This document shows positions 12,165 to 29,857 of a DNA stretch of 64,000 nucleotides, piece after piece. The stretch is from Desulfomicrobium sp. (GTDB taxonomy: Bacteria; Desulfobacterota; Desulfovibrionia; Desulfovibrionales; Desulfomicrobiaceae). Location of the stretch: the NCBI GenBank assembly GCA_040768745.1, contig JAXGMI010000001.1:480001-544000 (forward strand), given 5' to 3'. The position numbers and the translations under genes were made by a program. The notes beneath the pieces were generated by a model. That model did not search any database, was not told where the DNA came from, and was given only the letters and a program-made list of their open reading frames with translations. The stretch's first letter is position 1. The number at the start of each line of letters is the position of its first letter.

Positions 12165-12193
12165 GGAAAAACTGGTCAGATCCCTCTTGTTCT

Positions 12194-12545
12194 TGGTTCG
12201 ACACCTCCCGCTCGTGGTTCGACAAGCTCACCACGAACGGCGATAGTATCTCCGCTCAGGACACATGGTAATTCGTTGTTCCCGTTTATTGTGAGCCTCT
12301 CCGTTCCGTTCGTGGTGAGCCTCTCCGTTCCGTTCGTGGTGAGCCTCTCCGTTCCGTTCGTGGTGAGTCCCCGTTCGTGGTGAGTCCCCGTTCGTGGTGA
12401 GTCCCCGTTCGTGGTGAGCCTGTCGAACCATGGACGGAATCGTACATTTGCCGTTCGTGGTGAGCCTGTCGAACCATGGACGCAATCATGCATTTCCCGC
12501 TCGTGGCGAGCCTCTCCGTTCGTGGTGAGCCTGTCGAACCATGAA
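12194..12545. repeat. Cluster of REP-like CCGTTCGTGGTGAG(CCTGTCGAACCA) repeats with tandem expansions
   Basis: Full 26-mer at 12405, 12451, 12516; inverted copy 12215-12240; 3x24-bp (12291-12362) and 3x17-bp (12363-12413) tandem truncated units. Confidence 0.9.
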
Positions 12546-12717
12546 CGCAATCAGGGCGGCACCGACAGACGGCCCGGTTTGGAGCCGTTCTTCCAACCCC
12601 TCGAAATTACGCCTTGTGCCCTGCGCTGCCCCTGGGCTATGTCCAGAGCGTTTTGTGGCTTGGCCCGTCCGGGCCTGACCCCCCGTCCCTGCATCCCCCG
12701 CTCTGGAGGCTATTTTC

Positions 12718-14409
12718 ATGGCTCGTCCCAAAAAGAATGCCGCCGCACCCACCGCCACCATTGGCTTCGAGGCCAAGCTCTGGCTCGCGGCCGACAAGCT
12801 GCGCAACAACATGGACGCGGCGGAATACAAGCACGTTGTCCTTGGGCTCATCTTTCTCAAATATATTTCAGATACTTTTGAAGAGCACCGCGCCAAACTC
12901 CTGGCCGGAGAAGGCGACTACGCCGGGGCCAATCCCGGGGATGCCGACGAGTACCGCGCCGAAAACGTGTTCTGGGTTCCGGCCGAGGCCCGGTGGTCCC
13001 ATCTTCAAGCAAATGCCAAGCAGCCCACCATCGGCAAGATCGTGGATGATGCCATGGTCGCCATCGAGCGTGACAATCCGCGCCTCAAAGGAGTGCTGCC
13101 CAAGGATTACGCCAGGCCCGGTCTCGACAAGCACCGCCTGGGCGAACTCATCGACCTGATCGCCACCATCACTCTCACGGCAGCCAGCGAGGGCGAACAG
13201 ACGCACCGTTCCGTTGATCTGCTCGGGCGCGTGTACGAATATTTCCTGACCCGCTTTGCCAGCGCCGAGGGCAAGAACGGCGGGCAGTTCTACACGCCAT
13301 CCTGTGTCGTGCGCTGTCTGGTCGAGATGCTCGCGCCGTACAAGGGGCGCATTTATGACCCCTGTTGCGGCTCTGGCGGCATGTTCGTGCAGTCCGAAAA
13401 ATTCGTGGAAGCCCACGGCGGCAAGGTTGGGGACATCAGCATCTACGGGCAGGAGAGCAATTCGACCACCCGGCGCCTGGCCGTCATGAACCTGGCCCTG
13501 CGCGGCATCGAGGCCGACTTCGGCCCTGAACACGCCGACACCTTCCGCCGAGACCTGCATCCTGACCTGCGAGCCGACTATGTTCTGGCCAATCCGCCCT
13601 TCAATGATTCGGACTGGTTCCGCAAGGACGATGACGTGCGATGGCAGTTCGGCATCCCGCCCAAGGGCAACGCCAACTTTGCCTGGGTGCAGCACTTTAT
13701 CCACCATCTTGCGCCCCAGGGCATGGCCGGTTTTGTCCTGGCCAATGGCAGCATGTCTTCCAACCAGTCAGGCGAAGGCGACATACGCCGCGCCCTGATC
13801 GAGGCCGACCTTGTGGACTGCATGGTGGCGCTGCCCGGTCAACTCTTCTACAGCACGCAGATTCCGGTCTGCTTGTGGTTTATTTCCCGCGACAAATCAG
13901 GCGGGAAACCCTCAACCCGTCCTCTCGGCCACCCTTCTCCCACTGGGAGAAGGGCTGGGGATGAGGGGCGTTTGCGCGACCGAAGGAAGCAAACGCTGTT
14001 CATAGACGCCCGCAAACTCGGCACTTTGATCGACCGCGTTCACCGAGAACTGACCGACGCTGATTTGGAGAAAATCGCCACTACCTATCACCGTTGGCGA
14101 CGGGCAGGATGCCCAAGTGCCGCGGAGGCCAGGACGGCCGAGAGCGGCCGAGGAGACAACGGCGCGACCGAATACGAAGACATCGCCGGTTTCTGTAAAT
14201 CCGCCACTACTGCCGAAATTGCTGCGCATGGTTTTGTGCTGACGCCGGGGCGTTATGTCGGGGCTGAGGAGGTTGAAGATGATGGGGAGCCCTTTGAGGA
14301 CAAGATGAAGCGGTTGGTGGCTGAGTTGACGGGATATTTCGAGGAGTCGGCGAAATTAGAGCTAAGTATACGCAACAACCTAGCAAGTATTGGATTCAAA
14401 TTGAAATGA
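12718..14409 (+). CDS. hsdM: Type I restriction-modification methyltransferase subunit M
   Basis: [31 protein letters not shown] (N6-adenine MTase motif IV), LTPGRYVG. Confidence 0.96.
13909..13968. repeat. Palindromic repeat (CCCTTCTCCC-N3-GGGAGAAGGG family) in-frame inside hsdM
   Basis: 13932-13968 matches 20354-20390 at 35 of 37 nt; encodes [12 protein letters not shown]. Confidence 0.85.
14102..14149. repeat. Double-hairpin element in-frame inside hsdM
   Basis: GGGC-AGGAT-GCCC then GCCGC..GGCC-AGGAC-GGCC..GCGGC; encodes [15 protein letters not shown]. Confidence 0.55.
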
Positions 14410-14639
14410 GTGCACCGAAACAACGACAACGAGGGGTGTTCCACGAACCACTCCGCCCGAAGGATACTGCGACTCAAACCGAAGGATGTCGACATACTAA
14501 TCCCGATATTTGTTCCAACAATCAATTGTTCGATGTCTGTGCTTTCGTTCGGGCTGATAAAATGTGCATGCGTCCTCCTCGCTCATGGGCAAGGCAATAC
14601 GAAGTGTTGAAGACTCTTAAAATGAGATCAACAATATGA
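14406..14639 (+). CDS. Small Cys-rich hypothetical protein (77 aa)
   Basis: ATGA overlap with hsdM stop; [10 protein letters not shown]...[11 protein letters not shown]; fills the hsdM-hsdS gap. Confidence 0.65.
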
Positions 14640-14669
14640 TGCTGCAGTCCGAAATAATCATTAGGAGAT

Positions 14670-15971
14670 TTGGGCATGGCGGGTGATTGGCAAACAGCAC
14701 CTCTTTCAGAACTCTGTGAGCAAATTGTTGACTGCCCACATTCGACCCCCTTGTGGACGAACTCCGGCGTTATTGTTTTGCGAAATCAAAACATCCGCAA
14801 TGGTAGGCTGGACCTCAGTTCTCCAAGCTTCACGGACGAAGCTCATTTCGAGCAACGAAGTCGACGAGCCAAATTGAAAGCTGGTGACCTCGTACTTACG
14901 CGTGAAGCACCGATGGGTGAGGTATGTCTAATTCCCGAAGGGCTGCGCTGCTGTCTCGGTCAACGTATGGTCATGCTCAGACCTGATCAGAAAAAGTGCG
15001 ATTCACGTTTTTTGCTCTATTCGATTCAATCTGACGTAGTTCAGCATGAAATCAAAGTGAACGAAGGAACTGGCTCGACGGTAAGCAATCTGCGGATTCC
15101 TTTGCTGGAGGCTTTGCCTATCTTCTTCCCATCGCTCACCGAACAAAAAACCATCGCGGCCGTGCTTGGGGCGCTGGACGACAAGATCGAATTGAACCGG
15201 CGGATGAATGCGACGCTGGAAGCGATGGCGCGGGCGCTGTTCCAGAGCTGGTTCGTGGATTTCGACCCCGTCCGCGCCAAACTTGATGGCCGCCAGCCTG
15301 TGGGGATGGATGAGGCTACGGCGGCGTTGTTTCCGGAGCACTTGGAAGATTCACCACTCGGACATATTCCCAAGGGCTGGGCGGCAGGCAGACTCGGCGA
15401 CATTGGCACGAACTTACGGCGCGGCGTACAGCCTAGCGACATTGCACCGAACACGCCATACATCGCCTTGGAACACATGCCGCGCCGAAGCATCGCGCTC
15501 GGCGATTGGGACGGCTCACCCGCCGTGGCAAGCGGCAAGTCCATTTTTAAGAAAGGCGAAATCCTCTTCGGCAAGCTACGGCCCTACTTCCATAAAGTCG
15601 GTGTTGCCCCGTTCGATGGCGTCTGTTCCACCGATATTCTCGTCCTCGCACCGAAAAGTCCCGAGTGGTTCGGCTTCCTCCTCGGCCACGCAAGCAGCGA
15701 CGAACTGATTCAATTCACCGATCTTGCCTCCACCGGAACTAAGATGCCGCGTACGAACTGGAGAGACATCAGTTCCTTCAGAGTCGTCCTGCCGCCGAAG
15801 TCCATCGCCACCACCTACACGCGTAACATTCAACCGATGCTCGACCGCATTTACGCCAACCTCCACCAATCCCGCACCCTCGCCACCCTGCGCGACACGC
15901 TGCTGCCGAAGCTGCTGAGCGGGGAGTTGAGTGTGGCGGCCTTGGAATCCAAATTGGCGGCAACCCAATGA
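14670..15971 (+). CDS. hsdS: Type I R-M specificity subunit S
   Basis: Two TRDs; central conserved PSLTEQKTIAAVLGALDDKIELNRRMNATLEAMARALFQSWFVDF; C-terminal LATLRDTLLPKLLSGEL. Confidence 0.95.
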   Translation: MGMAGDWQTAPLSELCEQIVDCPHSTPLWTNSGVIVLRNQNIRNGRLDLSSPSFTDEAHFEQRSRRAKLKAGDLVLTREAPMGEVCLIPEGLRCCLGQRMVMLRPDQKKCDSRFLLYSIQSDVVQHEIKVNEGTGSTVSNLRIPLLEALPIFFPSLTEQKTIAAVLGALDDKIELNRRMNATLEAMARALFQSWFVDFDPVRAKLDGRQPVGMDEATAALFPEHLEDSPLGHIPKGWAAGRLGDIGTNLRRGVQPSDIAPNTPYIALEHMPRRSIALGDWDGSPAVASGKSIFKKGEILFGKLRPYFHKVGVAPFDGVCSTDILVLAPKSPEWFGFLLGHASSDELIQFTDLASTGTKMPRTNWRDISSFRVVLPPKSIATTYTRNIQPMLDRIYANLHQSRTLATLRDTLLPKLLSGELSVAALESKLAATQ

Positions 15972-17627
15972 ACCGTATGTTTCCAGCCCCAACGGGGCAT
16001 TATGCGATAGCCCAGGGCAACGCCCTGGGTTCATGGGCACACCCATTCGCAAGCCCTGAAGGGGCGGCATGGTTTTACGGGACCATGGATGGATCGACAC
16101 ACAATATTCCGCCCCTTCAGGGCGGGATTTCCTATGGGCCTTGTTCTTGTTCCCAGGGCGTTGCCCTGGGCTTTCACCGTACGCCCCGTTGGGGCTTTGA
16201 ATCATTTGGCGGCGATCCAATGAACCGCTTGCTTCCAACCCCTTCGGGGTATCATGCGACGGCAATCCAATTGAACCGTTTGGCTACAATCCAATGAACC
16301 GTCTGTTTCCAACCCCAACGGGGTATCATGCGATAGCCCAAGGCAACGCCCTGGGTTCATGGGATATACGTCCCACCAATTTCCCAAGCCCTGAAAGGGC
16401 GACATGGTTTTTCGCATCAACCGATGATCCCCCGCACAATATTCCGCCCCTTCAGGGCGGGACTTCGTATGGTCATGTTCTTGTTCCCAGGGCGTTGCCC
16501 TGGGCTTTCACCGTACGCCCCGATGGGGCTTTGAACCATTTGGAGGCAACCCAATGAACGGTTTGTTTCCACCCCCAATGGGGTGTCGTCATACATCGGC
16601 AATCCGATTGAATCATTTGGCGGCAACCCAATGAACCGCATGTTTCCAGCCCCAACGGGGCACCATGCGATAGCCCAGGGCAACGCCCTGGGTATTGGGG
16701 CACACACATTTCCAAGCCCTGAAGGGGCGATATGTTTTTACGGGACCATGGATGGATCGGCCAATATTCCGCCCCTTCAGGGCGGGATTTCGGGCCTTGT
16801 CCCCAGGGCAACGCCCTGGGTTCATGGGATATACGTCCCACCAATTTTCCAAGCCCTGAAAGGGCGACATGGTTTTACGAGATCATGGATGGATCGACAC
16901 ACAATATTCCGCCCCTTCAGGGCGGGACTTCGATGGGCGTTGTTCTTGTCCCCAGGGCGTTGCCCTGGCGGCCCCGTTGGGGCTTTGAATCATTTGGCGG
17001 CAACCCAATGAACGGTTTGTTTCCGCCCCCAATGGGGTGTCGTCATACATCGGCAATCCGATTGAATCATTTGGCGGCAACCAAATGAACCGTTTGCGTC
17101 CAGCCCCAACGGGGCATTACGCCCAGGGCAACGCCCTGGGTGCATGGGCACACACATTTCCAAGCCCTGAAGGGGCGACATGGTTTTACGGGACCATGGA
17201 TGGATCGGCACGCAATATTCCACCCCTTCAGGGCAGGATTTCATATGGACCTTGTTCTTGTTCCCAGGGCGTTGCCCTGGGCTTTTCACCGTACGCCCCG
17301 ATGGGGCTTTGAACCATTTGGGGGCAACCCAATGAACGGTTTGTTTCCACCTCCAATGGGGTGTCGTCATACATCGGCAATCCGATTGAATCATTTGGCG
17401 GCAACCCAATGAACCGCATGTTTCCATTTGCGATAGCCCAGGGCAACGCCCTGGGTACACACACATTTCCAAGCCCTGAAGGGGCGGCATGGTTTTACGG
17501 GACCATGGATGGATCGGCACGCAATATTCCGCCCCTTCAGGGCGGGACTTCCTATGCGCCATGTTCTTGTTCCCAGGGCGTTGCCCTGGGTATTTGGGTA
17601 CACACATTTCCAAGCCCTGAAGGGGCG
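15954..17627. repeat. Tandem array of six nested fold-back (REPIN-like) units plus the left arm of a seventh
   Basis: Unit A(GCCCCAACGGGGC)-B(CCCAGGGCAACGCCCTGGG)-C(AGCCCTGAAGGGGCG)-~40 bp-C'-B'-A'; C at 16052, 16387, 16715, 16852, 17163, 17472, 17613. Confidence 0.93.
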
Positions 17628-17634
17628 TAATCTT

Positions 17635-18087
17635 ATGCCGCAATCCCTCGCCCAAATCCTCGCACATCTGGTCTTCTCGACGAAAAACCGGGAACCGTCA
17701 CTGGCTGATGACATCCGCGATGAACTTCACGCGTACATCGGCGGCATTGTTGGAAACCAAAAAGGGACGCTGCTCAAAGCTGGCTCGGTTGCCGATCATA
17801 TCCACCTGCTGATCGCCATGCCCCGCACCTGCGCACCTGCCGATCTGGTTCAGGAAATCAAAACCAGCTCGTCAAAATGGCTGAAAACAAAATCGTCCTG
17901 TTCCACTTCTTTTCACTGGCAGGGTGGATACGGCATTTTTTCGATCAGCCCGTCCCATCGTCCGACACTAGAGAAATACATTGAAAATCAGGCAGAGCAT
18001 CACCGCGCGGTGACGTTTCAAGAGGAATACCGGCATTTGCTGCTCAAATACGGCATTGAATACGACGAACGATATGTCTGGGATTAA
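17635..18087 (+). CDS. tnpA: IS200/IS605-type HUH Y1 transposase, REP-associated (RAYT-like), 150 aa
   Basis: MPQSLAQILAHLVFSTKNR, HUH motif DHIHLL, WQGGYGIFSIS, catalytic Tyr in KYIENQAEHH; no tnpB; flanked by palindromes. Confidence 0.92.
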   Translation: MPQSLAQILAHLVFSTKNREPSLADDIRDELHAYIGGIVGNQKGTLLKAGSVADHIHLLIAMPRTCAPADLVQEIKTSSSKWLKTKSSCSTSFHWQGGYGIFSISPSHRPTLEKYIENQAEHHRAVTFQEEYRHLLLKYGIEYDERYVWD

Positions 18088-18096
18088 AGAAGATTT

Positions 18097-18178
18097 CGCC
18101 CTTTCAGGGCTTGGTTTGTCTGGTGACATTGCCCCCAGGGCGTTGCCCTGGGCTATCGCTTTGTGCCCCTTTGGGGCT
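18097..18178. repeat. Right arm (C'-B'-A') of the repeat unit enclosing tnpA
   Basis: CGCCCTTTCAGGGCT at 18097, CCCAGGGCGTTGCCCTGGGCTATCGC at ~18134, GCCCCTTTGGGGCT at 18165. Confidence 0.9.
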
Positions 18179-18201
18179 GTGAATTGGAAGGAATAAAACC
18201 C

Positions 18202-19254
18202 ATGAGCAAAGATTCCGAGACACCACCGCCACCGGGCGGCCAGTTCCTCGTTTACCAGGCGGAAGACGGAAAGCTGAAGATCGACGTGCGGTTTGACGGC
18301 GAGACCGTCTGGCTGACGCAGCAGCACATGGCCGAGCTGTTCCAGACGACCCAGCAAAACATCAGTCTGCATCTCCAGAACATTTACGCAGAGAATGAAC
18401 TGCAGCTTGAGGCAACTCACAAGGAATCCTTGTCAGTTCGGCAGGAAGGCGCACGATCCGTCCGGCGACGTTTGGATTTCTACAATTTGGACGCCATTCT
18501 TTCCGTTGGCTACCGGGTGAAAAGCGTCGTAGCCACCCGCTTTCGCATCTGGGCCACCCAGCGACTTCGGGAATACATCGTCAAGGGTTTTATCCTCGAC
18601 GATGAGCGGTTGAAGAATCCGGACCAGCCCTTCGACTATTTCGAGGAGTTGATGCGGCGGATTCAGGACATCCGCACTTCGGAGCGGCGGTTCTACCAGA
18701 AAATCACGGACATCTACGCGACGAGTATCGACTACGATCCCACCCAAGAGGTCAGCCTGCAATTTTTCAAGACGGTGCAAAACAAGATTCATTGGGCCAT
18801 CACCGGGCAGACGGCCGCCGAGATCGTCCATGAACGAGTGGATGCGACGAAGCCCAACCTCGGCCTGACGAACTGGCGGGGCGCGGTGGTCCGCAAGCAT
18901 GATGTCGTCATCGCCAAGAACTATCTGAGTGAGCCGGAGTTGGAGGCGCTGAACAATCTCGTGGAGCAATACCTGATCTTCGCCCAGGGTCAGGCCATGC
19001 GGCGGGTTCCGATGCATATGGCGGACTGGATCGAGAAGTTGAACGGGTTTCTGACCTTGAATGACCGCGATATTCTCACCCATGCCGGACGTATTTCGCA
19101 CGAGATGGCGCAAACCAAGGCCGAGTTGGAATACGATAAGTTCAAGGCGCTCGCCGCCAGTGCCCCAAGACCCGTGGACGCGCATTTCGAACAGGCCACC
19201 AAAGACCTCAAGAAACTGCCGAAGCCGAAGAAACCCAAGCCCCAACAGCCATGA
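18202..19254 (+). CDS. rhuM: Virulence RhuM family protein
   Basis: [74 protein letters not shown] overlap with hsdR. Confidence 0.9.
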
Positions 19255-22200
19255 CCATCAACGAATCCCTCATCGAAGAAGCAACCCTCCAATGGTTAGG
19301 GGAACTGGGCTATGCCGCTTTGCACGGCCCGATGCTCGCGCCCGGTGAACCGGCGACTGAGCGGGATTCGTTTGGTGATGTGGCGCTTGTCGGACGTCTG
19401 CGTGAAGCAATCCGGCGTCTGAATCCGGCCATGCCCGAAGAGGCTTGGGAAGATGCCGTACGCAAGGTTTTACTGGTGGCAACGCCATCCTTGACGCAGA
19501 CCAACCGTGCTTTTCACAAGATGCTGCGCGACGGGGTGCCGGTGGAGTATTCCCGGCCAGATGGCAGCATTGCTGGTGATCACGCCCGGCTGGTGGATTT
19601 CGACGACGTCTCGGCGAACGACTGGCTGGCGGTCAATCAGTTCACGGTCATTGAGGGCGCGCTCTCCTCTACCTCTGGGAGAGGCGGGGGTGAGGGTATC
19701 GGGGCGCACCGCCGCCCCGATATAGTGATTTTCGTCAACGGGCTGCCGCTGGGTCTGATCGAACTCAAAAACGCGGCGGATGAGGACGCGACGATCTGGA
19801 GCGCGTATGCACAGCTCCAAACCTACAAGAGTCAGATCCCATCACTATTGCAGTACAACGCGCTGCTTGTGGTCAGTGACGGCTTGCAGGCCCGCATGGG
19901 CTCGCTGACGGCCAATCAGGAATGGTTCAAGGTATGGAGGGAGCCGGATGTCTCGCCTCCACCCTCACCCCAACCCTTTCCCGCTGGGAGAGGGAGTGAA
20001 CATTATCGCGGAGGGTTCGGTTTTGCCGGATTGACAGACAAAGCGAGGAAATTGCGGCGGCACCAAACTTCGGCGGAAGAGTTGCTTTGGGACTTGCTGC
20101 GGGATCGACAGTTGATGGGGGCGAAATTCCGGAGGCAACACCAGTTCGGCGAATACATCTGCGATTTCTTCTGCCACGACGCAAAGCTGGTCGTGGAATG
20201 CGATGGCGAGCCGCACTCCGAAGCCGCACGCATGAAGCACGACGCCAAACGGGATGCTTATCTCAGGTCTCGGGGACTTACGGTTGTCCGGTTTGCAAAC
20301 GAACGGGTCTTGAATGACACCGACGCTGTTCTTCAGGAAATCGCCTCCCATTTCCCTTCTCCCGCTGGGAGAAGGGCCGGGGATGAGGGGCAGCAGCGAC
20401 CCAAAACCACGCTCGAACTCCAAACGTTGATTTACGGCGTCTTCGAGCGGGAACGCTTTCTCAAGCTGCTGCTACATTTCATTGTTTTCGAGGAGGACCC
20501 GGACTCCGGTGCGTTGCACAAGATCATCGCGGGCTACCATCAATTCCATGCCGTGAACGCGGCGGTGGAAGAGACCATTCGCGCCTCGCTCACTCCGCAT
20601 GATTTCGCGGGAAAGAACGCAACGCTCAGCGAGAACGCGGGCACCTACTGGGCGGGTCGCATGCATGGCGGCAAGCCGGGCGATCGACGTGCGGGAGTTG
20701 TCTGGCACACGCAGGGTAGCGGCAAGAGTTTCACCATGCTGTTCTTTGCCGCTCGCGTGATCCGCGAGAGTGCGATGCAAAACCCTACCCTAGTGGTCTT
20801 GACCGACCGCAATGACCTTGACGACCAGCTTTTCGGCCAATTTCAGCGCTGTCACGACATTCTCGGCCAGACTCCGGTACAGGCCGCGAATCGTGAGAAG
20901 ATGCGCGAATTGCTGGCCGTGGCGAGCGGGGGAGTGGTCTTCACCACGATCCAGAAATTTTTGCCCGAGCGGGGAGAGCGGATGCCCTGCCTGAGCGAGC
21001 GCCGGAACATCATCGTCATCGCCGACGAAGCGCACCGCAGCCAATACGATCTCATCGACGGCCTGGCCCGGCATATGCGCGATGCCTTGCCAAACGCCTC
21101 CTTCATTGGTTTCACCGGCACGCCCATCGAGAAGACCGACGCCAACACGCGGGCGGTCTTTGGCGATTACATTTCCATCTACGACATCCAGCGTGCCGTT
21201 GCCGACAAGGCCACGGTGCCGATCTACTACGAGAGCCGCATCTCCAAACTTGGCCTGAACGCCAGCGAACTGCCGACGCTCGACGCGGATTTTGAAGAGA
21301 TCACCGAAGGCGAAGAAGAGACGAAGAAGGAAAAACTCAAGTCCAAGTGGGCAGCGCTGGAAGCGTTGGTGGGTGATCCCAAGCGCGTCGCCCTCATCGC
21401 CGCCGATCTGGTGACGCATTTCGAGAAGCGCGTGGAGGCCATGGACGGCAAGGCCATGATCGTGTGCATGAGCCGCCGCATCTGCGTGGATATGTACGAA
21501 GCGCTCATCAAGCTTCGGCCAGACTGGGCCAGCGCCACGAATGACGACATTGAGGCCGAGAAGGGTAAGGACTGCGTGGTGAAGGTGGTCATGACCGGCA
21601 GTGCCGAAGACGGCCCGGACTGGCAACCCCACATCCGCAACAAGGACAAGCGCCGCAAGCTGGCCAACCGTTTCAAGGACAGCAAAGACCCCTTCCGGAT
21701 CGTGATCGTGCGCGACATGTGGCTGACCGGTTTTGACGCGCCTTGCCTGCACACCATGTATGCCGACAAGCCCATGCAGGGACACGGCCTCATGCAGGCC
21801 ATCGCCCGCGTGAACCGTGTCTTTCGTGACAAGCCGGGCGGTCTGGTGGTGGATTATCTGGGTCTGGCCGATCAGCTTAAAAATGCCCTGGCCAACTACA
21901 CCGAGAGCGGGGGCAAGGGTGACCCGACCTTTGACACTCGGCAGGCCATCGCCGTGATGCTGGAAAAGCACAATATCGCCTGCGACATCATGCACGGTTT
22001 CAATTGGAAATTGTGGACCACTGGCAAGCCTTCCGAGCGCCTGGCCCTCATCCCTGCCGGTCAGGAGCACATCCTGAGCCAGGAAGACGGCAAGAAGCGC
22101 TGGGTGCAGGTGGTGACCGAACTTTCTCGCGCCTTTGCCCTCTGCGCCGCGAGCGATGAAGCCACCGAAATTCGCGAAGACGTTTCCTTCTTCCAGGCCC

Positions 22201-22904
22201 TGCAAGCCGCGCTGAACAAGCAAAACGGCACCAGCCGCAAGACCCCTGAGCAGATCGACGCGGCCATCCGCCAGCTCGTGTCCAAGGCCATCACCACCGA
22301 AGGCCAGGTCATCGACGTCTTCACCGCCGCCGGACTTCCGAGGCCGGACATATCCATCCTGAGCGACCAATTCCTGGCCGAAGTGCGCGGCCTCAAACAC
22401 AAGAACGTCGCCGCCGAGTTGCTGGAGAAACTGCTCAAGGATGAACTGAAGGTCCGCGCCAAGCGGAACATCGTCCAGAGCCAGGTGTTCAGCGAGAAGC
22501 TCAAGAAGACGCTCAATTCCTATCATAACCGGGCCATCTCGACGATGGAGGTTATCGAGGAACTCATCACCCTGGCCAAGGAAATGGAAGCCGCGACAAA
22601 GCGGGGTGAACATCTCGGCCTGACGGATAATGAGATTGCGTTTTACGACGCTCTCGCCGCCAACGAATCCGCCGTGAAAGCAATGGGCGACGACAAGCTC
22701 AAGGTCATCGCCACGGAACTCATCACCCAGATCCGCAAGAGCGTGACCATTGACTGGACTTTGCGCGAAGGCGCGCGGGCAAAGATGCGCGTGATGGTCA
22801 AGCGCATCCTGAACAAGTACGGCTATCCGCCGGACCTCCAGGCAGAAGCGGTGAAGACGGTGCTTATGCAGGCGGAGTTGTTGTGCAGGGAGTGGGCGGC
22901 GTGA
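19251..22904 (+). CDS. hsdR: Type I restriction endonuclease subunit R with an internal DUF559-like insertion
   Basis: RRPD..NGLPL..IELK nuclease motif, [49 protein letters not shown]. Confidence 0.96.
19662..19696. repeat. Degenerate palindromic repeat in-frame in hsdR nuclease domain
   Basis: CCTCTACC-TCT-GGGAGAGG-CGGGGGTGAGGG; encodes [12 protein letters not shown] just before RRPD. Confidence 0.7.
19962..20390 (+). mobile_element. Inverted-repeat-flanked DUF559/Vsr-like endonuclease cassette, in-frame in hsdR
   Basis: [20 protein letters not shown]...[28 protein letters not shown]...[18 protein letters not shown]; left repeat 19962-19994 and right repeat 20354-20390 in inverted orientation. 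Confidence 0.75.
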
Positions 22905-22983: not shown

Positions 22984-24318
22984 TCAGCGCTCCCGACACG
23001 CCTCCAGCACGGCCTTGGTCACCGGCGAGAGCAGATATTCCAGCACGGACCGCTGGCCGAGCCTGATCTCGGCCGAAACCTGCATCCCCGGCAGCAGGGG
23101 ATAGCTCTGGCCCCCGTGGAGCAGATGCTGCGTGGCCAGGCCGATGGTTGATTTGTAGACCAGGGGCGCCCCTTCCCCTCTCTCCCCCTGACCCGCGCCT
23201 TCCCCCACGGCGTTCGCGTCCGGCCCGACCCGTTCCACCATGCCGTCCAGCATCCCGTATTTCTGGAAGGCAAAGGCCCCCAGCTTCACCACCGCGGGCT
23301 GTCCCGGGGCGACAAACCCGATGTCCTCATTCTGGATCCACACCTCGGCCAGCAATTCCTCTTTCCCGGGCACCAGGGTCATGACAATGGTGCCGGGGCT
23401 GACCACCGTGCCCACCGTATGGGTGGCCAGGTCCTTGACCACCCCGTCCTGGGGCGCGGTCAGCTCCAGCAGTTCATTGCGTCGATCCTCCTTGGTCAGG
23501 GCCTGTTCCACCGCGGCCAGCCTGGACATGGTCTCCACCCGTTCCGCGCGCAGATTGCGCTGATCATCCGCCCGGACTTGGATAATCCGCTTTTCGACCC
23601 GCACAATGTCGGCCTTCAGGCCCTGCACGGCGAACTCCTGCGCGTTCAGCTCCCGCTCCTTTTCCTGGCGTTCCCGGTGCTTGTCCGTGACCAGCAGGCG
23701 GGGCACATGCCCGTCCCGGCCCAGACGGCCGTATGCCTCGTCCTGATCCCGGTAATGGGCCAGGGAGTCCACCATGCGCGTCCTGGTCTCCACCGCCCCG
23801 GACAGCTCATGCCGGGCCTTTTCCAGCAGGGCCCGCTGTTCGGCCACGGCATTGGCCAGGGCCAGGCGATTGGCCTGGAACTGGGCCTGCACCCCGGCAA
23901 AGAGATCCGCCGGATCGTCCTGGTGCCGGAAAAACGGCGAATCCGCCAACTCCGCGTCGATGCGGCGCAAGGTCAAAGTCAGGCGGTGCCTGTCCGCCAC
24001 CAGGGTCGCGCGGTCCGCCCGCACGTCGGTGCCGTCCAGGCGCATGAGGGGCTGCCCCTGACGGACCGCATCGCCCTCCCGCACCAGAATCTCCTTGACG
24101 ATGCCGCTCTCGGCAGGCTGCACGATCTTGAGATACGTTCTGGGCACCAGCCTGCCCTGGGCCACGGCCACGATATCCAGTTGCCCGAAGATGCCCCAGA
24201 CCAGCATTGTGGCGCAAAACGCCAGGAGGGTGCCAAGCAGTTTCCGGCCCAGGGGCGAAGGCGGAGTTTCCCGCACACGACGGTGCCCGGGCCAAAATTC
24301 CAGAAATTCGTCGGTCAT
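22984..24318 (-). CDS. HlyD family T1SS periplasmic adaptor
   Basis: N-terminal TM, LDIVAVAQGRLVP, GIVKEILVREGD, LTAPQDGVV, AFAFQKYGMLDG, PGMQVSAEIRLGQRSVLEYLLSP. Confidence 0.93.
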   Translation of the reverse strand: MTDEFLEFWPGHRRVRETPPSPLGRKLLGTLLAFCATMLVWGIFGQLDIVAVAQGRLVPRTYLKIVQPAESGIVKEILVREGDAVRQGQPLMRLDGTDVRADRATLVADRHRLTLTLRRIDAELADSPFFRHQDDPADLFAGVQAQFQANRLALANAVAEQRALLEKARHELSGAVETRTRMVDSLAHYRDQDEAYGRLGRDGHVPRLLVTDKHRERQEKERELNAQEFAVQGLKADIVRVEKRIIQVRADDQRNLRAERVETMSRLAAVEQALTKEDRRNELLELTAPQDGVVKDLATHTVGTVVSPGTIVMTLVPGKEELLAEVWIQNEDIGFVAPGQPAVVKLGAFAFQKYGMLDGMVERVGPDANAVGEGAGQGERGEGAPLVYKSTIGLATQHLLHGGQSYPLLPGMQVSAEIRLGQRSVLEYLLSPVTKAVLEACRER

Positions 24319-24355
24319 GACCCAACCCGTGGGGGTTTGCCCCCTTCAACCGCAT

Positions 24356-24394
24356 CGGCAGGGCGGGAGAATGCGCATGCCCCCCGCCCTGCCG
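24356..24394 (-). terminator. Hairpin just 3' of the RTX gene
   Basis: CGGCAGGGCGGG/CCCGCCCTGCCG 12-bp stem between the RTX gene and hlyD-like gene. Confidence 0.5.
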
Positions 24395-24397
24395 CGT

Positions 24398-27300
24398 TCA
24401 TCCAAGACGGACCGCGCCGGTCTGCAGACCGGAGAATGGCCGCAGGGCTTGCAAAGATGCGCCGAAGTCCGCACCCCCCACCACCTCCTGGGCGGCCAGG
24501 ACGTCCATGCCCGTCAGACTGCCATTCCTGCCGTACCAGTAGGCCAGATCACCGCCCACGGCCTCGCTGTCGCTGCCGCCGAGATGGTACTGCCCCAGGG
24601 CGTTCAGCAGGTCCCAGCTTGTCAGCCCGGGATCGGCCTGCCTGGCCTGGTCGAACTGGCCCACCAGACCCATGAAATCGAACCGCTCCACCCTGTGGTC
24701 CAGAATGGGGCTCGTCGAGGTGGGATCGTACTCGTCCGTGGAGTCCAGAACGACCTGCAGCGTTCCGACACTCTGGCCCGAACGCGCATACCAATCCCTG
24801 AACAGCACCGACTCCGCGTTGCCCACGTCCAGGATCAGATCCTTGCCCTGCACGCGAAACGAGAGGTCGGAGTATCCGATCCCGTTGCCCAGGGACAGGG
24901 TGTTGTCCCCGCCCTTGGACGCCCCGACGATGTCCGCCCCGTCACCGCGGTTGAAGGCGATGACGTCCGTCCCCGTGCCCGTGATCACTGTGTCGTTCCC
25001 GCTGCCGCCGATGAACAGTTCCGCACCGGCGCCGCCGGTCACGGCGTCGTCGCCGGAACCGCCATGCAGCAGGGCGTTGCCCGAGGTGTCGGTCAGGACG
25101 TCGTTCCCCGCCCCTCCCTCCAGGATGTCGTTGCCCCGGCCGCCGTTCAGGGCATTGGTGGAGCTGTTCCCGCGCAGATAATTGGCCAGGGCGTTGCCCG
25201 ACCCATCCAGGGCCGCCTCCCCGCTCAGCATCAAGTATTCGACGCTGCGGGGCAAGGTCAGGGAGACCGCGGAGTGGAGAAGATCCATGCCCTCGTCCGC
25301 GTTTTCCGTGATCTTGTCCGAGGTCGTGTCCACATGGTAGGCGTCGTCGCCGGTTCCCCCGGCCATGGTGTCCGCACCCCCGCCGCCATCGAGCACGTCG
25401 TCCCCCGCGCCTCCGGTCAGGACGTTCTTCGCGCTGTTGCCCACGAGCACATTGTCCAGGGCATTGCCTGTTGCGCTGGTGGCGGCCGTGCCGGTCAGGG
25501 TCAGGTTTTCGACATGGTCGGGCAGGGTGTAGCCCACAGAACTGACCACCTGATCCGCGCCTTCCCCTGCATTCTCCATGACCACATCCCCTGTGTTGTC
25601 CACGAGGTACGTGTCGTTGCCAGGCCCTCCGCCCATGGTGTCCAGACCCGCGCCGCCGTCGAGGAGGTCGTCGCCGGCCTTGCCGATGAGGGCGTCGTCG
25701 CCGGCCAGGGCAAAAACCCGGTCATTGCCCGAACCGCCCTGCAGTGTGTCCGCATCCGCCGTGCCGGTGAGGATCAGGTCCTGTACCGTGACCGTGACGT
25801 CGAAAACGTCGCTGGCGCTGAGCCCCCCCGCATCCCGGGCAGTGACCCGCACGCTCAGGGTGCCCGATGCCCCCTCGGGAGGAATGCCCTCAAATGCGCG
25901 GCTCCGGCTGTCAAAGGTCAGCCATGCGGGCAGGTCCGATCCATCCACCAGGGTCGCCGAGTAGGACAGGGGATCGGCATCCGGATCGACAAAGGCCCCG
26001 GCTGGAATGACGTGACTGAAGGCCGCCCCCTCGGCCACGGCCAGGTCCTCCAGAGGCTCGGCCAGGGCGGGGGCCCGGTTGGGAGCGTCCACCACGATGG
26101 TCACGGGGGTGCCCGCCGCAAGCCCGTATGTGTCCGTCCCCCACAGCACGAAGTCCAGGATGCCGGCGTCTGGAGCCAGCGGGGTGCCTTCGAAAATCCG
26201 CAGGTTCGCGTCGAACTGCAGCCATGGGGGCAGCGGGGAGCCGTCGCTCATGCTGGCGCTGTAGGTCAGTCTGTCCCACGCATCGGGATCAGCCATGATC
26301 CCATCCCGCACGACATACGAGAAAGGCATGCCGATGGTGGCCTGCAGTTCCGGCACGGGCTGAACCGAAACCGGGGCCTGGTTGGAGGCGACCCGGTTGA
26401 CCACGGTGTCGATCATGGAACCATCCCAGGCCGCGCCGTTCTCGAAGCAAACCTGTTCGATCCTGTAGTCCTGAAAGCCCATTCCTTGCAGAACAGCCGG
26501 GGCGTAGTGGTTGAACACGACCACCTGGTCCAGGCCCTCCGTGAGGGTGAACACCAGATGTTCGCCGACGCGGAAGGCCCTCACGTCCTGCTCGCCGATG
26601 CCCGACCCGAAGCGCAGGGTGTCATTGCCCCCGGCAAGATCATGGTCATCAATGGTGTCCTGGCCGTCCCCCCGCCGGAAGACGTAGATGTCCTGACCAC
26701 CTCCGCCCTGCAGGTAATCGCTTCCCACATCCCCGTGCAGTGCATCGTCCCCGTCATCCCCATACAGCACGTCATCCCCGTCTCCTCCGGACAGATCGTC
26801 TGCATCTTCCCCCCCTGACAGATGATCGTCTCCGATCCCGCCATGAAGGGTATCACCCCCCTCCTGGCCAAGCAGGACATCGCTGCCGTCTCCTCCAAGG
26901 AGAACGTCGCTGCCTGCCCCGGCCTGCAGATGGTCATCCCCGTCCCCGCCCAGCAGGGTGTCGTCGCCGGAGTCCCCCTGCAGCAAGTCGTTCCCCTCAC
27001 CGCCGTCAAGGATGTCTTTGGCGTCACCGCCAAGCAGGGTATCGTGTCCGCTGCCGCCGGACAGGACATCGTCGCCAACACCTCCATAGAGCATGTCCTG
27101 CCCGCTGCCGCCGCTGAGCATGTCGTTGCCCCCGTCCGGGGCGTCATGGTTGAGGACGAAATTCAGGGTCGTGTAGCCTGTATGAAAACCTTTTTCGTGG
27201 GTCTGGAACTCAACGCCCAGGCTGGGCAGATTGTCCAGATTCAGAGATATGGGCAGGGTCAGGTAGCCATCCCCGACCAGGATGTCGTCGCCATCTCCCC

Positions 27301-29857
27301 CGGACAGCTTGTCCGCATGGGAGGCCCCGGCCAGCACATCATTTCCAGCCAGTCCCTGCATCTGGTCGTCGCCGTTCAACCCATCCAGAAAATCATTGTC
27401 CTCCCCGCCAGCGATCCGGTCCGCCCCGCCGCTGCCGCTGATCCAGTCGTTGCCAGCGCCTCCGTCCAGCTGGTCCCCCTCCACGGGTCCGGCCATGGAG
27501 ATGGGCTTGTTGTTCCAGGCGGTGATGTTGCCCATGAGGATATCCGATCCGTTCCCTCCAAGAATTTCGTCCCGGCTCTGGAATCCGAACAGAAAGTCCC
27601 CGGAATCCCCGCCGTTGACATGCAGACGCGGGGCCGTGGCCGGAAAGGGCTGCTCGAAAATGAACGAGCCTTCCGTCGCACCGGGCGGAAAGGTGGCCAG
27701 GTACAGTTTCCAGTTGGCCGGGTCGGAGCTGAAATTGAGAATGCCCATTTCGTCCCGGTCCTGCGTTCCGTTCAGGACCAGGTCCGAAGCCGGAGGCTCG
27801 TCCTGCAGGACAAAGCCGAAGTCCTGCCCTGCGAAGTCGGCTGCCGAGGTTTGCCGGTCAAACGTGACGCTGTCAGTGGGGCCCAGGTTCAGGACCCCGG
27901 GGGAATGGAAGGTCAGGGGCCGGAGGCTGCCGTCATCGCTGATGAACGTGTAGGTGTCCTCGTCGACTTTCATGAACACGCCGGCGATGAGCTGCCCGTT
28001 GTACAGGATATTGTTGCGCCCTTCGTCGATGACGTGGTCGTTTCCCTGAATGGAGTAGGTGTCCACCCCGGCGCCGCCAGACATGACATCATCCCCGACC
28101 CCACCGTCCAGAACGTCGTCGCCAGGACCGCCTTCGAGATAATCGTTGCCGGCGTATGTCCGGAGGATGTCGTTCCCGCCGCCGCCAAAAACGTGATCGT
28201 CGAATCCGGCGTCCGGGTTCAGCGGATCACGGGCCACGTCTATTGTGTCCGCCTGTTCGGACCCGAAAACGTACTCCGGCGAGGGTGTGCGGTAGGGAGC
28301 AGAGTTGGGCACTGTGTTGTTGATGGACACCCCCGTCCCCCTGTCCTCGAAATAACAATAAAGGTCCGGCGAAATCGTGTCCTGCCTGTCCAGATCACGG
28401 ACAGCCAGCTCATTCTTCAGGGCCAGAAACCTGGCCCGCGCCTCCAGATATTCCCCGGTCAAGCCCTGCCCGGTCTGGGCATCGAACAGGTCAAGCTGGC
28501 CCTGATGGTTGAACCGGTCATACAGCCCCCCTTCCCCGCTGACCATGAACGGATTCAGATTGACCAGTGCGTAGCGGGCGGCCACTGAGGCTTGGGCAAG
28601 GCTGGCCAGCTGGGCAGCACTCTGGTTCACCAGGGGCGTAATGGTCCGGGACGTGCCAGCCAACGCTTGGTGAATCATCGAAATCCGCTGATAGAGCGCT
28701 TCACGAATGCTCCCGTCCACGGCCTCGTCCTTGTGCACATCCTGATAGCCGGGAACCAGCATCCTGCCGAAGACATTGACCAGGGATTCGAAGGTGGAAT
28801 TCGTGTCACCAGAGGCTCCCTCGAAAATGGGGCTCAACTCGGCCATGACGGCGTCGGCGCTGGCCGTTTGCAACCGGCTGTCCGCCCTGATGAAAAGATC
28901 GTACACGGCCAGAGCGTCGGTCATCTGCTCGATGCCATGCCCAAAGGAACCGTTCCATGCTGTCTCGATGAAAATCCCGGTATGGGATCCGGGCTGGGCC
29001 AACAACCCTCCTGGCGAATCCTGGGTGACCAGCTCCGGTCCCTTTGTCCCGTACAGGTTGAGGATGCTGGCCTGGTCAAAAGACCCGCCGCCCAGCGTGG
29101 AAAAAAGGTGCTCGATGTTTGCCGTCTTCCACGAGTCCGCGCCCAGGGAAAACCCGGCCCCGTTGATTGCCACGGCATCCTCGACCAGACCCGGGAAAAG
29201 GCGGGACGCGGCCATGGCCAAATGCCCACCCAGGCTATGCCCCGTGGTGATGATGTCTGCCGCGGCCTTGAGGGCGCCGTCCTCTGTGGCGATGACGGAC
29301 TGCAATTGGATCGCGTATACGCCCGAGCCTGGCCCATCAAAAATCAGGTCGGTCCTGGCCATGAGTTCCGATTTGACCTGCGCGTACAGCACCGGGTCAT
29401 GAGCGGCCTGGAGCAGCCGATCCGTGGAGGCCTGGTCAAACTCCAGCGCCGCCACGGTATATGTGGAGCCTTGGGCCGAGCGCAGACGCTGCATGTCGTT
29501 GAACAGGTCGAGAATCTGCTTGATGGCCACCCCGTCGGCAATGATGTCCCCGAAATCCGCGGACGTGGTGTCTTGGGAGAGAAACTCGGTCCCGCGACAG
29601 GCGTAGACAAATTCTCCGCTGACCTTGTTCTGAAAGAGTGTGGCGGAAAACCCGGTACCGGTGTTCGGCAGATGGTACACAACAGACCATGTTCCCACAA
29701 AGTCTGCGGCCTGGGTGGGGGAAAAGGAGCCATTAAGGTTTGAATTTTGGAGAGCAGCTTCGATTCGCTCTTTTGAAAAATCTGGCAACTTGTCGAATGC
29801 GATATAAACTGCATCACTCAACGATGCCATATCATACAAGTTTTTTGTATTAATCAT
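24398..29857 (-). CDS. RTX Ca-binding T1SS substrate with N-terminal lipase-like domain and two cadherin/He_PIG-like repeats (1819 aa)
   Basis: YACRGTE and TGHSLGG near the N-terminus; many GGxGxD nonapeptides; two LTYSA...DGS.LP.WL.FD repeats. Confidence 0.9.
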   Translation of the reverse strand: MINTKNLYDMASLSDAVYIAFDKLPDFSKERIEAALQNSNLNGSFSPTQAADFVGTWSVVYHLPNTGTGFSATLFQNKVSGEFVYACRGTEFLSQDTTSADFGDIIADGVAIKQILDLFNDMQRLRSAQGSTYTVAALEFDQASTDRLLQAAHDPVLYAQVKSELMARTDLIFDGPGSGVYAIQLQSVIATEDGALKAAADIITTGHSLGGHLAMAASRLFPGLVEDAVAINGAGFSLGADSWKTANIEHLFSTLGGGSFDQASILNLYGTKGPELVTQDSPGGLLAQPGSHTGIFIETAWNGSFGHGIEQMTDALAVYDLFIRADSRLQTASADAVMAELSPIFEGASGDTNSTFESLVNVFGRMLVPGYQDVHKDEAVDGSIREALYQRISMIHQALAGTSRTITPLVNQSAAQLASLAQASVAARYALVNLNPFMVSGEGGLYDRFNHQGQLDLFDAQTGQGLTGEYLEARARFLALKNELAVRDLDRQDTISPDLYCYFEDRGTGVSINNTVPNSAPYRTPSPEYVFGSEQADTIDVARDPLNPDAGFDDHVFGGGGNDILRTYAGNDYLEGGPGDDVLDGGVGDDVMSGGAGVDTYSIQGNDHVIDEGRNNILYNGQLIAGVFMKVDEDTYTFISDDGSLRPLTFHSPGVLNLGPTDSVTFDRQTSAADFAGQDFGFVLQDEPPASDLVLNGTQDRDEMGILNFSSDPANWKLYLATFPPGATEGSFIFEQPFPATAPRLHVNGGDSGDFLFGFQSRDEILGGNGSDILMGNITAWNNKPISMAGPVEGDQLDGGAGNDWISGSGGADRIAGGEDNDFLDGLNGDDQMQGLAGNDVLAGASHADKLSGGDGDDILVGDGYLTLPISLNLDNLPSLGVEFQTHEKGFHTGYTTLNFVLNHDAPDGGNDMLSGGSGQDMLYGGVGDDVLSGGSGHDTLLGGDAKDILDGGEGNDLLQGDSGDDTLLGGDGDDHLQAGAGSDVLLGGDGSDVLLGQEGGDTLHGGIGDDHLSGGEDADDLSGGDGDDVLYGDDGDDALHGDVGSDYLQGGGGQDIYVFRRGDGQDTIDDHDLAGGNDTLRFGSGIGEQDVRAFRVGEHLVFTLTEGLDQVVVFNHYAPAVLQGMGFQDYRIEQVCFENGAAWDGSMIDTVVNRVASNQAPVSVQPVPELQATIGMPFSYVVRDGIMADPDAWDRLTYSASMSDGSPLPPWLQFDANLRIFEGTPLAPDAGILDFVLWGTDTYGLAAGTPVTIVVDAPNRAPALAEPLEDLAVAEGAAFSHVIPAGAFVDPDADPLSYSATLVDGSDLPAWLTFDSRSRAFEGIPPEGASGTLSVRVTARDAGGLSASDVFDVTVTVQDLILTGTADADTLQGGSGNDRVFALAGDDALIGKAGDDLLDGGAGLDTMGGGPGNDTYLVDNTGDVVMENAGEGADQVVSSVGYTLPDHVENLTLTGTAATSATGNALDNVLVGNSAKNVLTGGAGDDVLDGGGGADTMAGGTGDDAYHVDTTSDKITENADEGMDLLHSAVSLTLPRSVEYLMLSGEAALDGSGNALANYLRGNSSTNALNGGRGNDILEGGAGNDVLTDTSGNALLHGGSGDDAVTGGAGAELFIGGSGNDTVITGTGTDVIAFNRGDGADIVGASKGGDNTLSLGNGIGYSDLSFRVQGKDLILDVGNAESVLFRDWYARSGQSVGTLQVVLDSTDEYDPTSTSPILDHRVERFDFMGLVGQFDQARQADPGLTSWDLLNALGQYHLGGSDSEAVGGDLAYWYGRNGSLTGMDVLAAQEVVGGADFGASLQALRPFSGLQTGAVRLG

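Follow-up and report, generated by a model that had tools for sequence, protein, structure and literature searches.

Inteins with homing endonucleases are site-specific lineages that move between host alleles with co-converted flanks. Here we analyse short repeats, and a cassette encoding a nuclease of the DUF559 family, to which to our knowledge no role has been assigned, inside the type I restriction-modification (R-M) genes hsdM and hsdR of a 64,000-nt stretch of Desulfomicrobium sp. DNA (contig JAXGMI010000001.1, positions 480,001 to 544,000; hereafter the window). The repeats resemble BoxC, also named PIT or TMECO, an intrastrand-triplex repeat (Holder et al. 2015, PMC4666352). That paper describes TMECO elements as always intergenic in MG1655 and as not linked to mobility genes, and gives the origin of BoxC/TMECO repeats as an unanswered question. 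In-frame palindromes have been described as Rickettsia palindromic elements (RPEs) and as intragenic repetitive extragenic palindromes (REPs) of the GTAG/CGTC type, often in genes of DNA metabolism, where they are argued to be tolerated in loops (PMC10969869, PMC3733652). R-M genes also undergo recombinational domain movement at conserved flanking motifs (Furuta and Kobayashi 2012, PMC3467074). These systems, together with the REP-associated tyrosine transposases (RAYTs; PMC3733652) and the EDxHD homing endonuclease I-Bth0305I (PMC3239194), are compared below.

The window holds one solo repeat in HsdM loop M1, another in HsdR loop RA, and a full DUF559 cassette at HsdR site RB (Table 1). We confirmed that both solos are genuine insertions that keep the reading frame, and that both are copies of the three-strand, BoxC/TMECO-like repeat found at the ends of DUF559 cassettes. 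A first-pass annotation of the window had described them as inserted peptides; homologues with empty loops lack both the peptide and the palindrome, so the peptides are not conserved where the palindrome is missing. The 35/37 identity between hsdM 13932-13968 and the cassette right end (20354-20390) was recomputed with the same result, and the encoded peptides are nearly identical as stated. The hsdM element is longer than had been noted, spanning 60 nt with a left and a right arm, between which a small hairpin precedes a 10-bp hairpin. The best other 37-mer in the window scores 24/37, excluding the self-complementary reads of both hairpins (27 and 25). Loop M1 is 20 aa long in 50 of 74 locus rows (the window's own row is counted here and for the other loops), and this repeat fills it only in L087, L089 and the window. 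The M1 peptide is also missing from PDB 3khk, the structure to which the HsdM loops were aligned. In the alignment, the loop that separates VNQFTV from RRPD has 6 aa in 146/161 rows and 20 aa with the degenerate RA copy, which had been said to add roughly 14 aa just before RRPD. At RB the loop has 14 aa in 139 of 156 rows. The surface location proposed for the solos agrees with a predicted HsdR structure in the case of RA and with the 3khk alignment in the case of M1. In the HsdR model (51-sequence alignment; predicted local distance difference test score, pLDDT, 80) the RA insert would lie between strands 133-135 and 152-154, in a loop modelled with low confidence. The catalytic residues D157, E171 and K173 are invariant in the HsdR alignment and intact in 16/16 RA carriers.

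The repeats were compared with the TMECO/BoxC consensus, CCCTCNCCC N3-6 GGGNGAGGG N3 GGGNGAGGG. The left end of the cassette differs from it by one substitution, the M1 repeat and the right end are one base longer in all three strands, and the RA copy is three edits away; the repeat of the window is best called a TMECO variant rather than a strict TMECO member. As in TMECO, a C-rich stem is followed by a loop, a G-rich stem, a 3-nt loop and a second G-rich strand. Unlike TMECO, all four copies lie inside open reading frames (ORFs), the repeat caps a nuclease gene, and three of the four copies are variants with 10-nt strands or degenerate sequence. A search of 1.86 Mb of R-M loci found 41 distinct copies, with 0 matches in the reversed-sequence control; exact matches to the TMECO consensus exist among homologous R-M copies. 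Strand lengths co-vary among the 41 (9/9/9, 10/10/10), and in most of them the third strand is 0-1 from the mirror of the second, a pattern for which the repeat finder itself selected; the triplex is thus a prediction from sequence. The copies occur in both orientations and three peptide readings, from which we conclude that conservation acts at the DNA level. Conservation of the peptide was considered and is ruled out by the empty homologues, the two orientations and the differing readings. Of the 11 copies that lie outside recognised hsdM/hsdR frames, two are in stretches of hsdM that the pattern did not recognise, and one is in a probable hsdS. The Rfam search returned no match for this repeat. 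In E. coli, ycjD (annotated as DUF559) lies ~170 nt from TMECO no. 9, and a degenerate copy is found at the ycjD 3' end. In G002, a free-standing DUF559 gene stands between two such hairpins. The literature searched, which left out most subscription papers, yielded no report that connects DUF559 with these repeats or with R-M loops.

The 3.09 Mb genome holds only four copies, all in this operon, and a genome-wide search returned no copy elsewhere. The repeat is therefore not a resident multi-copy family of this genome. Two of 18 congeners carry it, at a single site each, and one match was obtained in an order-level relative (G027), inside an N6-methylase frame. In hosts where the repeat is resident, 4/20 sampled copies lie in Pfam-recognised frames. 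Like RPEs and intragenic REPs, the palindromes here are in frame in protein genes and missing from homologues. Unlike RPEs, which are ~150 bp long and resident genome-wide, they measure 35-60 nt, are not resident, occupy R-M loops only and are tied to DUF559. The same repeat was also seen inside oxidoreductase, zinc dehydrogenase and NADH dehydrogenase subunit frames (L168, L171, L181; two other genomes).

The flanks of the inserts point to their source. Locus rows were fetched with the HsdR N-terminus and include the window itself. Outside the inserts, the genes of the window resemble empty alleles (L083-L086, L004) at a level of 85-99%. At each insert the window switches, flanks included, to distant alleles: L087/L089 at M1, L129 at RA and L010 at RB. 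Compared with P0144, which is empty at M1, HsdM shows a single difference between residues 109 and 379; the differences cluster around the insert, 14 of 32 falling within 15 aa of it. The window HsdR belongs to a clade of support 100 in which the 14 remaining rows have no insert at RA or RB, and identity reaches 98% over 604 C-terminal columns. On an unrooted FastTree of 105 C-terminal regions (15 of 120 matches dropped as short or unparsed; no approximately unbiased, AU, or shuffle test), the 13 rows with RA inserts need 12 changes and the 35 rows filled at RB need 26. Flank divergence between filled and empty alleles exceeds that between empty alleles at RB (0.243 against 0.041), M1 (0.110/0.052) and RA (0.098/0.037). 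By eye, the flanks at M1, RA and RB are replaced, with no target duplication or clean junction in the alignments. Lateral spread as short recombination patches is thus supported for this locus. We consider it probable, at roughly 0.6, that the solos entered as loop alleles that already existed, carried over from distant hsdM/hsdR genes by homologous recombination of short patches. In this assessment we took as established the insertion status, the relation to cassette ends, the genomic absence elsewhere, the donor-like flanks, the scatter on the tree, the site-specific nuclease lineages and the purifying selection on the nuclease. In R-M domain movement the cargo is a target-recognition domain, whereas the loops here carry repeat or nuclease DNA of selfish appearance.

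The first-pass annotation had instead proposed that the solos are non-autonomous derivatives that spread into surface loops of the R-M subunits. On this view they would be comparable to miniature inverted-repeat transposable elements, mobilised in place by the neighbouring cassette. The 35/37 identity and the shared operon fit this proposal, and one-armed right-end solos are common (44 pattern matches, a few still cassette-linked), so that single ends may be copied somewhere. However, about 35/37 identity is ordinary, being common to same-subtype copies in unrelated loci. The RA copy belongs to the PSTSGRGAGGEG end subtype, unlike the ends of the local cassette; this subtype is the commonest right end (50/111 cassettes), and the copy corresponds to the 21-aa allele of L129, P0016, P0024 and P0031 shortened by 3 nt. 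The genome offers no other copy, the junctions are neither clean nor duplicated, and the donor-like flanks are common to unrelated loci. Mobilisation in place is largely refuted for this locus and as an explanation is very improbable; spread from the neighbouring cassette probably did not occur here. The claim of cassette mobility survives for the long run, with seven occupied sites, and is not supported for local spread. There is no need to invoke recent gene conversion for the likeness of the hsdM copy and the local right end, as same-subtype copies elsewhere differ in loop bases only.

We parsed 300 homologous proteins, in sets ranked by similarity to insert-bearing queries. They contain 109 cassette ORFs at seven sites: R408 (44), RB (24), M154 (23), R100 (10), R290 (4), M1 (3) and M2 (1). 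None of the 109 is at RA. Loops M1 and M2 can hold full cassettes too; those at M1 (P0250, P0253, P0267) have the same derived flanks as the solos. The nuclease tree groups by site, with 13 changes against a shuffled mean of 57 (minimum 50), and cassette identity is at most 79% across sites and up to 88% within a site. Because the nuclease groups by site and the inserts scatter over the host-gene tree, insertion at new sites looks rare and old and spread between alleles common, as for inteins but unspliced. GIY-YIG domains (PF01541) were also observed in frame in the HsdR/HsdM homologues P0117 and P0267, with flanking repeats of their own; P0267 holds two DUF559 cassettes and one GIY-YIG domain.

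At RB, M154 and M1 the same derived flanks surround full cassettes, double-end copies and solos, so the three states interconvert. All solos might be scars of full cassettes collapsed between their two hairpins, never inserting alone. The left and right hairpins of the window cassette share a 13-nt direct repeat in the same frame, the ends of the P0250 cassette predict the solos of P0150 and P0154, and the RA insert of P0022 resembles an internally deleted cassette. Against this, only one of the 300 proteins holds the collapse product predicted from the commonest cassette type. The left-end type of the window's M1 solo, found on 38 solos with the window's included, is on 0/111 cassettes. The vacancy of RA among the 109 cassettes points the same way, and no collapse joint was present among the matches listed from the contigs of 8 runs. 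As the main origin of the solos hairpin collapse is weak: in its simple form it accounts for just a few of them, and that all of them are scars is unlikely. Since collapse fits few cases and the M1 left end is on no cassette, the solos are probably of mixed origins.

The DUF559 domain of the cassette matches DUF559 and MTES_1575 only in Pfam. Its model matches 3hrl and the catalytic domain of I-Bth0305I (3r3p, template modelling score, TM, 0.75), and the cassette repeat peptides are modelled as disordered linkers around a folded domain. The catalytic fold and motif are thus Vsr-like, as in EDxHD homing endonucleases. Unlike these enzymes, the cassette has no intron or intein and no NUMOD region in its 116-aa domain; its empty sites have no target in common, and solos without the nuclease also move. 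No intron family was matched in the Rfam search, and the frame of the cassette is continuous with HsdR. No skipping joint was seen in RNA-library contigs covering the inserts, none of which counted as bridging and in which DNA may be present. The layout, with one enzyme gene between inverted hairpin repeats and both solo and paired copies elsewhere, recalls REP/RAYT. Here, by contrast, the enzyme is a Vsr-fold nuclease of PD-(D/E)xK type and not a Y1 transposase, there is no GTAG or CGTC tag, and the host protein includes the translated cassette. A plasmid search returned only distant DUF559 genes (<60% identity). The genome has a second DUF559 gene (L002 1250-1900; G000:C3:102233-102532), which is flanked by a different palindrome and apparently lies between an hsdS end and an hsdM start, these neighbours being recognised by eye.

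The nuclease motif is kept in 85/86 parsed cassettes, and the ratio of nonsynonymous to synonymous divergence (dN/dS) of the DUF559 domain against L010 is 0.056, from one usable pair with near-saturated dS, other distant pairs being saturated. As judged from these sequences, the nuclease is under purifying selection. This bears on the possibility that the repeat spreads through instability of its triplex or hairpin structure and repair by the host, with DUF559 a trapped passenger and the alleles drifting by neutral recombination. PMC4666352 links TMECO sites to local variability and reports no mobility genes; many other repeat families occupy the same loops, insert-free patches exist, and G003, an incomplete genome, has a repeat copy without a DUF559 match. 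The preserved motif, the low dN/dS and the recurrence of the end-ORF-end layout at seven sites and free-standing are at odds with a passenger role, to which we give a small chance. We also weighed whether the inserts benefit the R-M enzyme, either by supplying an accessory nuclease or by varying its surface to counter the anti-restriction proteins of phages. Such a benefit would agree with the 30 of 41 copies that fall in hsdM/hsdR frames, which make up ~30% of locus DNA, and with the intact catalytic residues of all RA carriers. The inserts occupy seven unrelated sites in the two subunits, occur in both orientations, encode variable peptides and are often truncated, and most alleles are empty, which makes a benefit highly improbable.

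For the preferred reading, recombination of pre-existing loop alleles, we propose the following history. In other hosts the DUF559 nuclease would nick at or near the hairpin ends, and rarely the whole cassette or one end would be copied to a new place, by analogy with what is thought of RAYTs and REPs. In R-M genes, copies would survive only if they are in frame and lie in one of the few surface loops that tolerate them, a filter supported by the presence of unrelated repeats in the same loops, and internal deletions would trim some cassettes to one or two ends. Full, trimmed and solo alleles would then circulate among homologous R-M genes as unspliced patches with ~30-80 nt of flank, and breaks at the hairpin may favour patch transfer as a putative drive. 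More tentatively, and at less than even odds, DUF559 with BoxC/TMECO ends may form a splicing-free self-propagating class whose breaks home the cassette, and nuclease-free ends in trans, between R-M alleles across phyla; DUF559 would then be the BoxC mobiliser.

Several points weigh against this explanation. The activity and movement of the nuclease are predictions, and its dN/dS comes from the single near-saturated pair. Unrelated repeat families fill the same loops, which requires no DUF559. Relative to the rest of the gene, the flank excess is modest at M1 (1.2x) and RA (1.1x). Insert-free foreign patches occur at 12886-12980 and 22659-22730, and a population variant at 19811-19853 is also an insert-free patch; ordinary mosaic recombination could therefore move alleles without drive. 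Frequencies are biased because proteins resembling the insert-bearing queries ranked first in the sets used. Finally, the host tree is limited to the C-terminal part and to an unrooted FastTree topology with no AU test.

In-frame palindromes were already known; a candidate enzyme and a route are added here. In these data, type I R-M loops are exchanged as short patches between distant alleles and collect several repeat families, and this collection reaches six residues from the active-site aspartate of the nuclease. The coordinates are collected in Table 1.

Table 1. Features of the R-M operon, in window coordinates.
Feature	Position	Strand	Remarks
hsdM	12718..14409	+	type I methyltransferase, 563 aa, open frame; PF12161, PF02384; PDB 3khk E 2e-135
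Approximate imported patch	13880..14000	+	M1 insert and flanks matching L087/L089 (89-92%), not the empty backbone alleles
Solo two-armed repeat, loop M1	13909..13968	+	60 nt, in frame; +18 aa relative to the empty 20-aa loop
Second in-frame insert, loop M2	14098..14148	+	51 nt; unrelated sequence; single genomic copy
hsdR	19251..22904	+	1217 aa, open frame; catalytic D157, E171, K173 present
Solo one-armed repeat, site RA	19662..19696	+	in frame, beta-hairpin tip before RRPD; cassette right-end subtype; +14 aa
Cassette left end	19961..19997	-	one substitution from TMECO consensus; inverted
DUF559 Vsr-fold nuclease domain, site RB	20034..20348	+	PF04480; in frame, HsdR aa 262-366; ExDGxxH intact
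Cassette right end	20354..20390	+	10-bp-stem variant

The operon order is hsdM, hsdS, a Y1 transposase gene, rhuM and hsdR. Contigs from runs of 4 studies, which may include runs of the source sample, carry both inserts with identical letters and in no other version, which makes an assembly artefact unlikely. The M2 insert of the window is also present in P0144, and in homologous loci loop M2 is filled by many unrelated repeat-derived peptides. Tandem repeats at 12170-12560, upstream of hsdM, belong to a family that is clustered at C1:900258-901908 and matches the related loci L006, L038 and L072, where it is in frame in loop M2. Between hsdS and rhuM (window 15970-18180), the Y1 transposase gene (17635-18087; PF01797, RAYT-like) is preceded by about six repeat units of 310-335 nt each, which reuse the hsdS 3' end. 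The hairpins of this region match Rfam Acido-Lenti-1 slightly under the gathering score and have no other copy in the genome. Directly 3' of hsdR (window 22984-29857) are an HlyD-family secretion gene and a gene for a 1819-aa protein with glycine-rich nonapeptide repeats.

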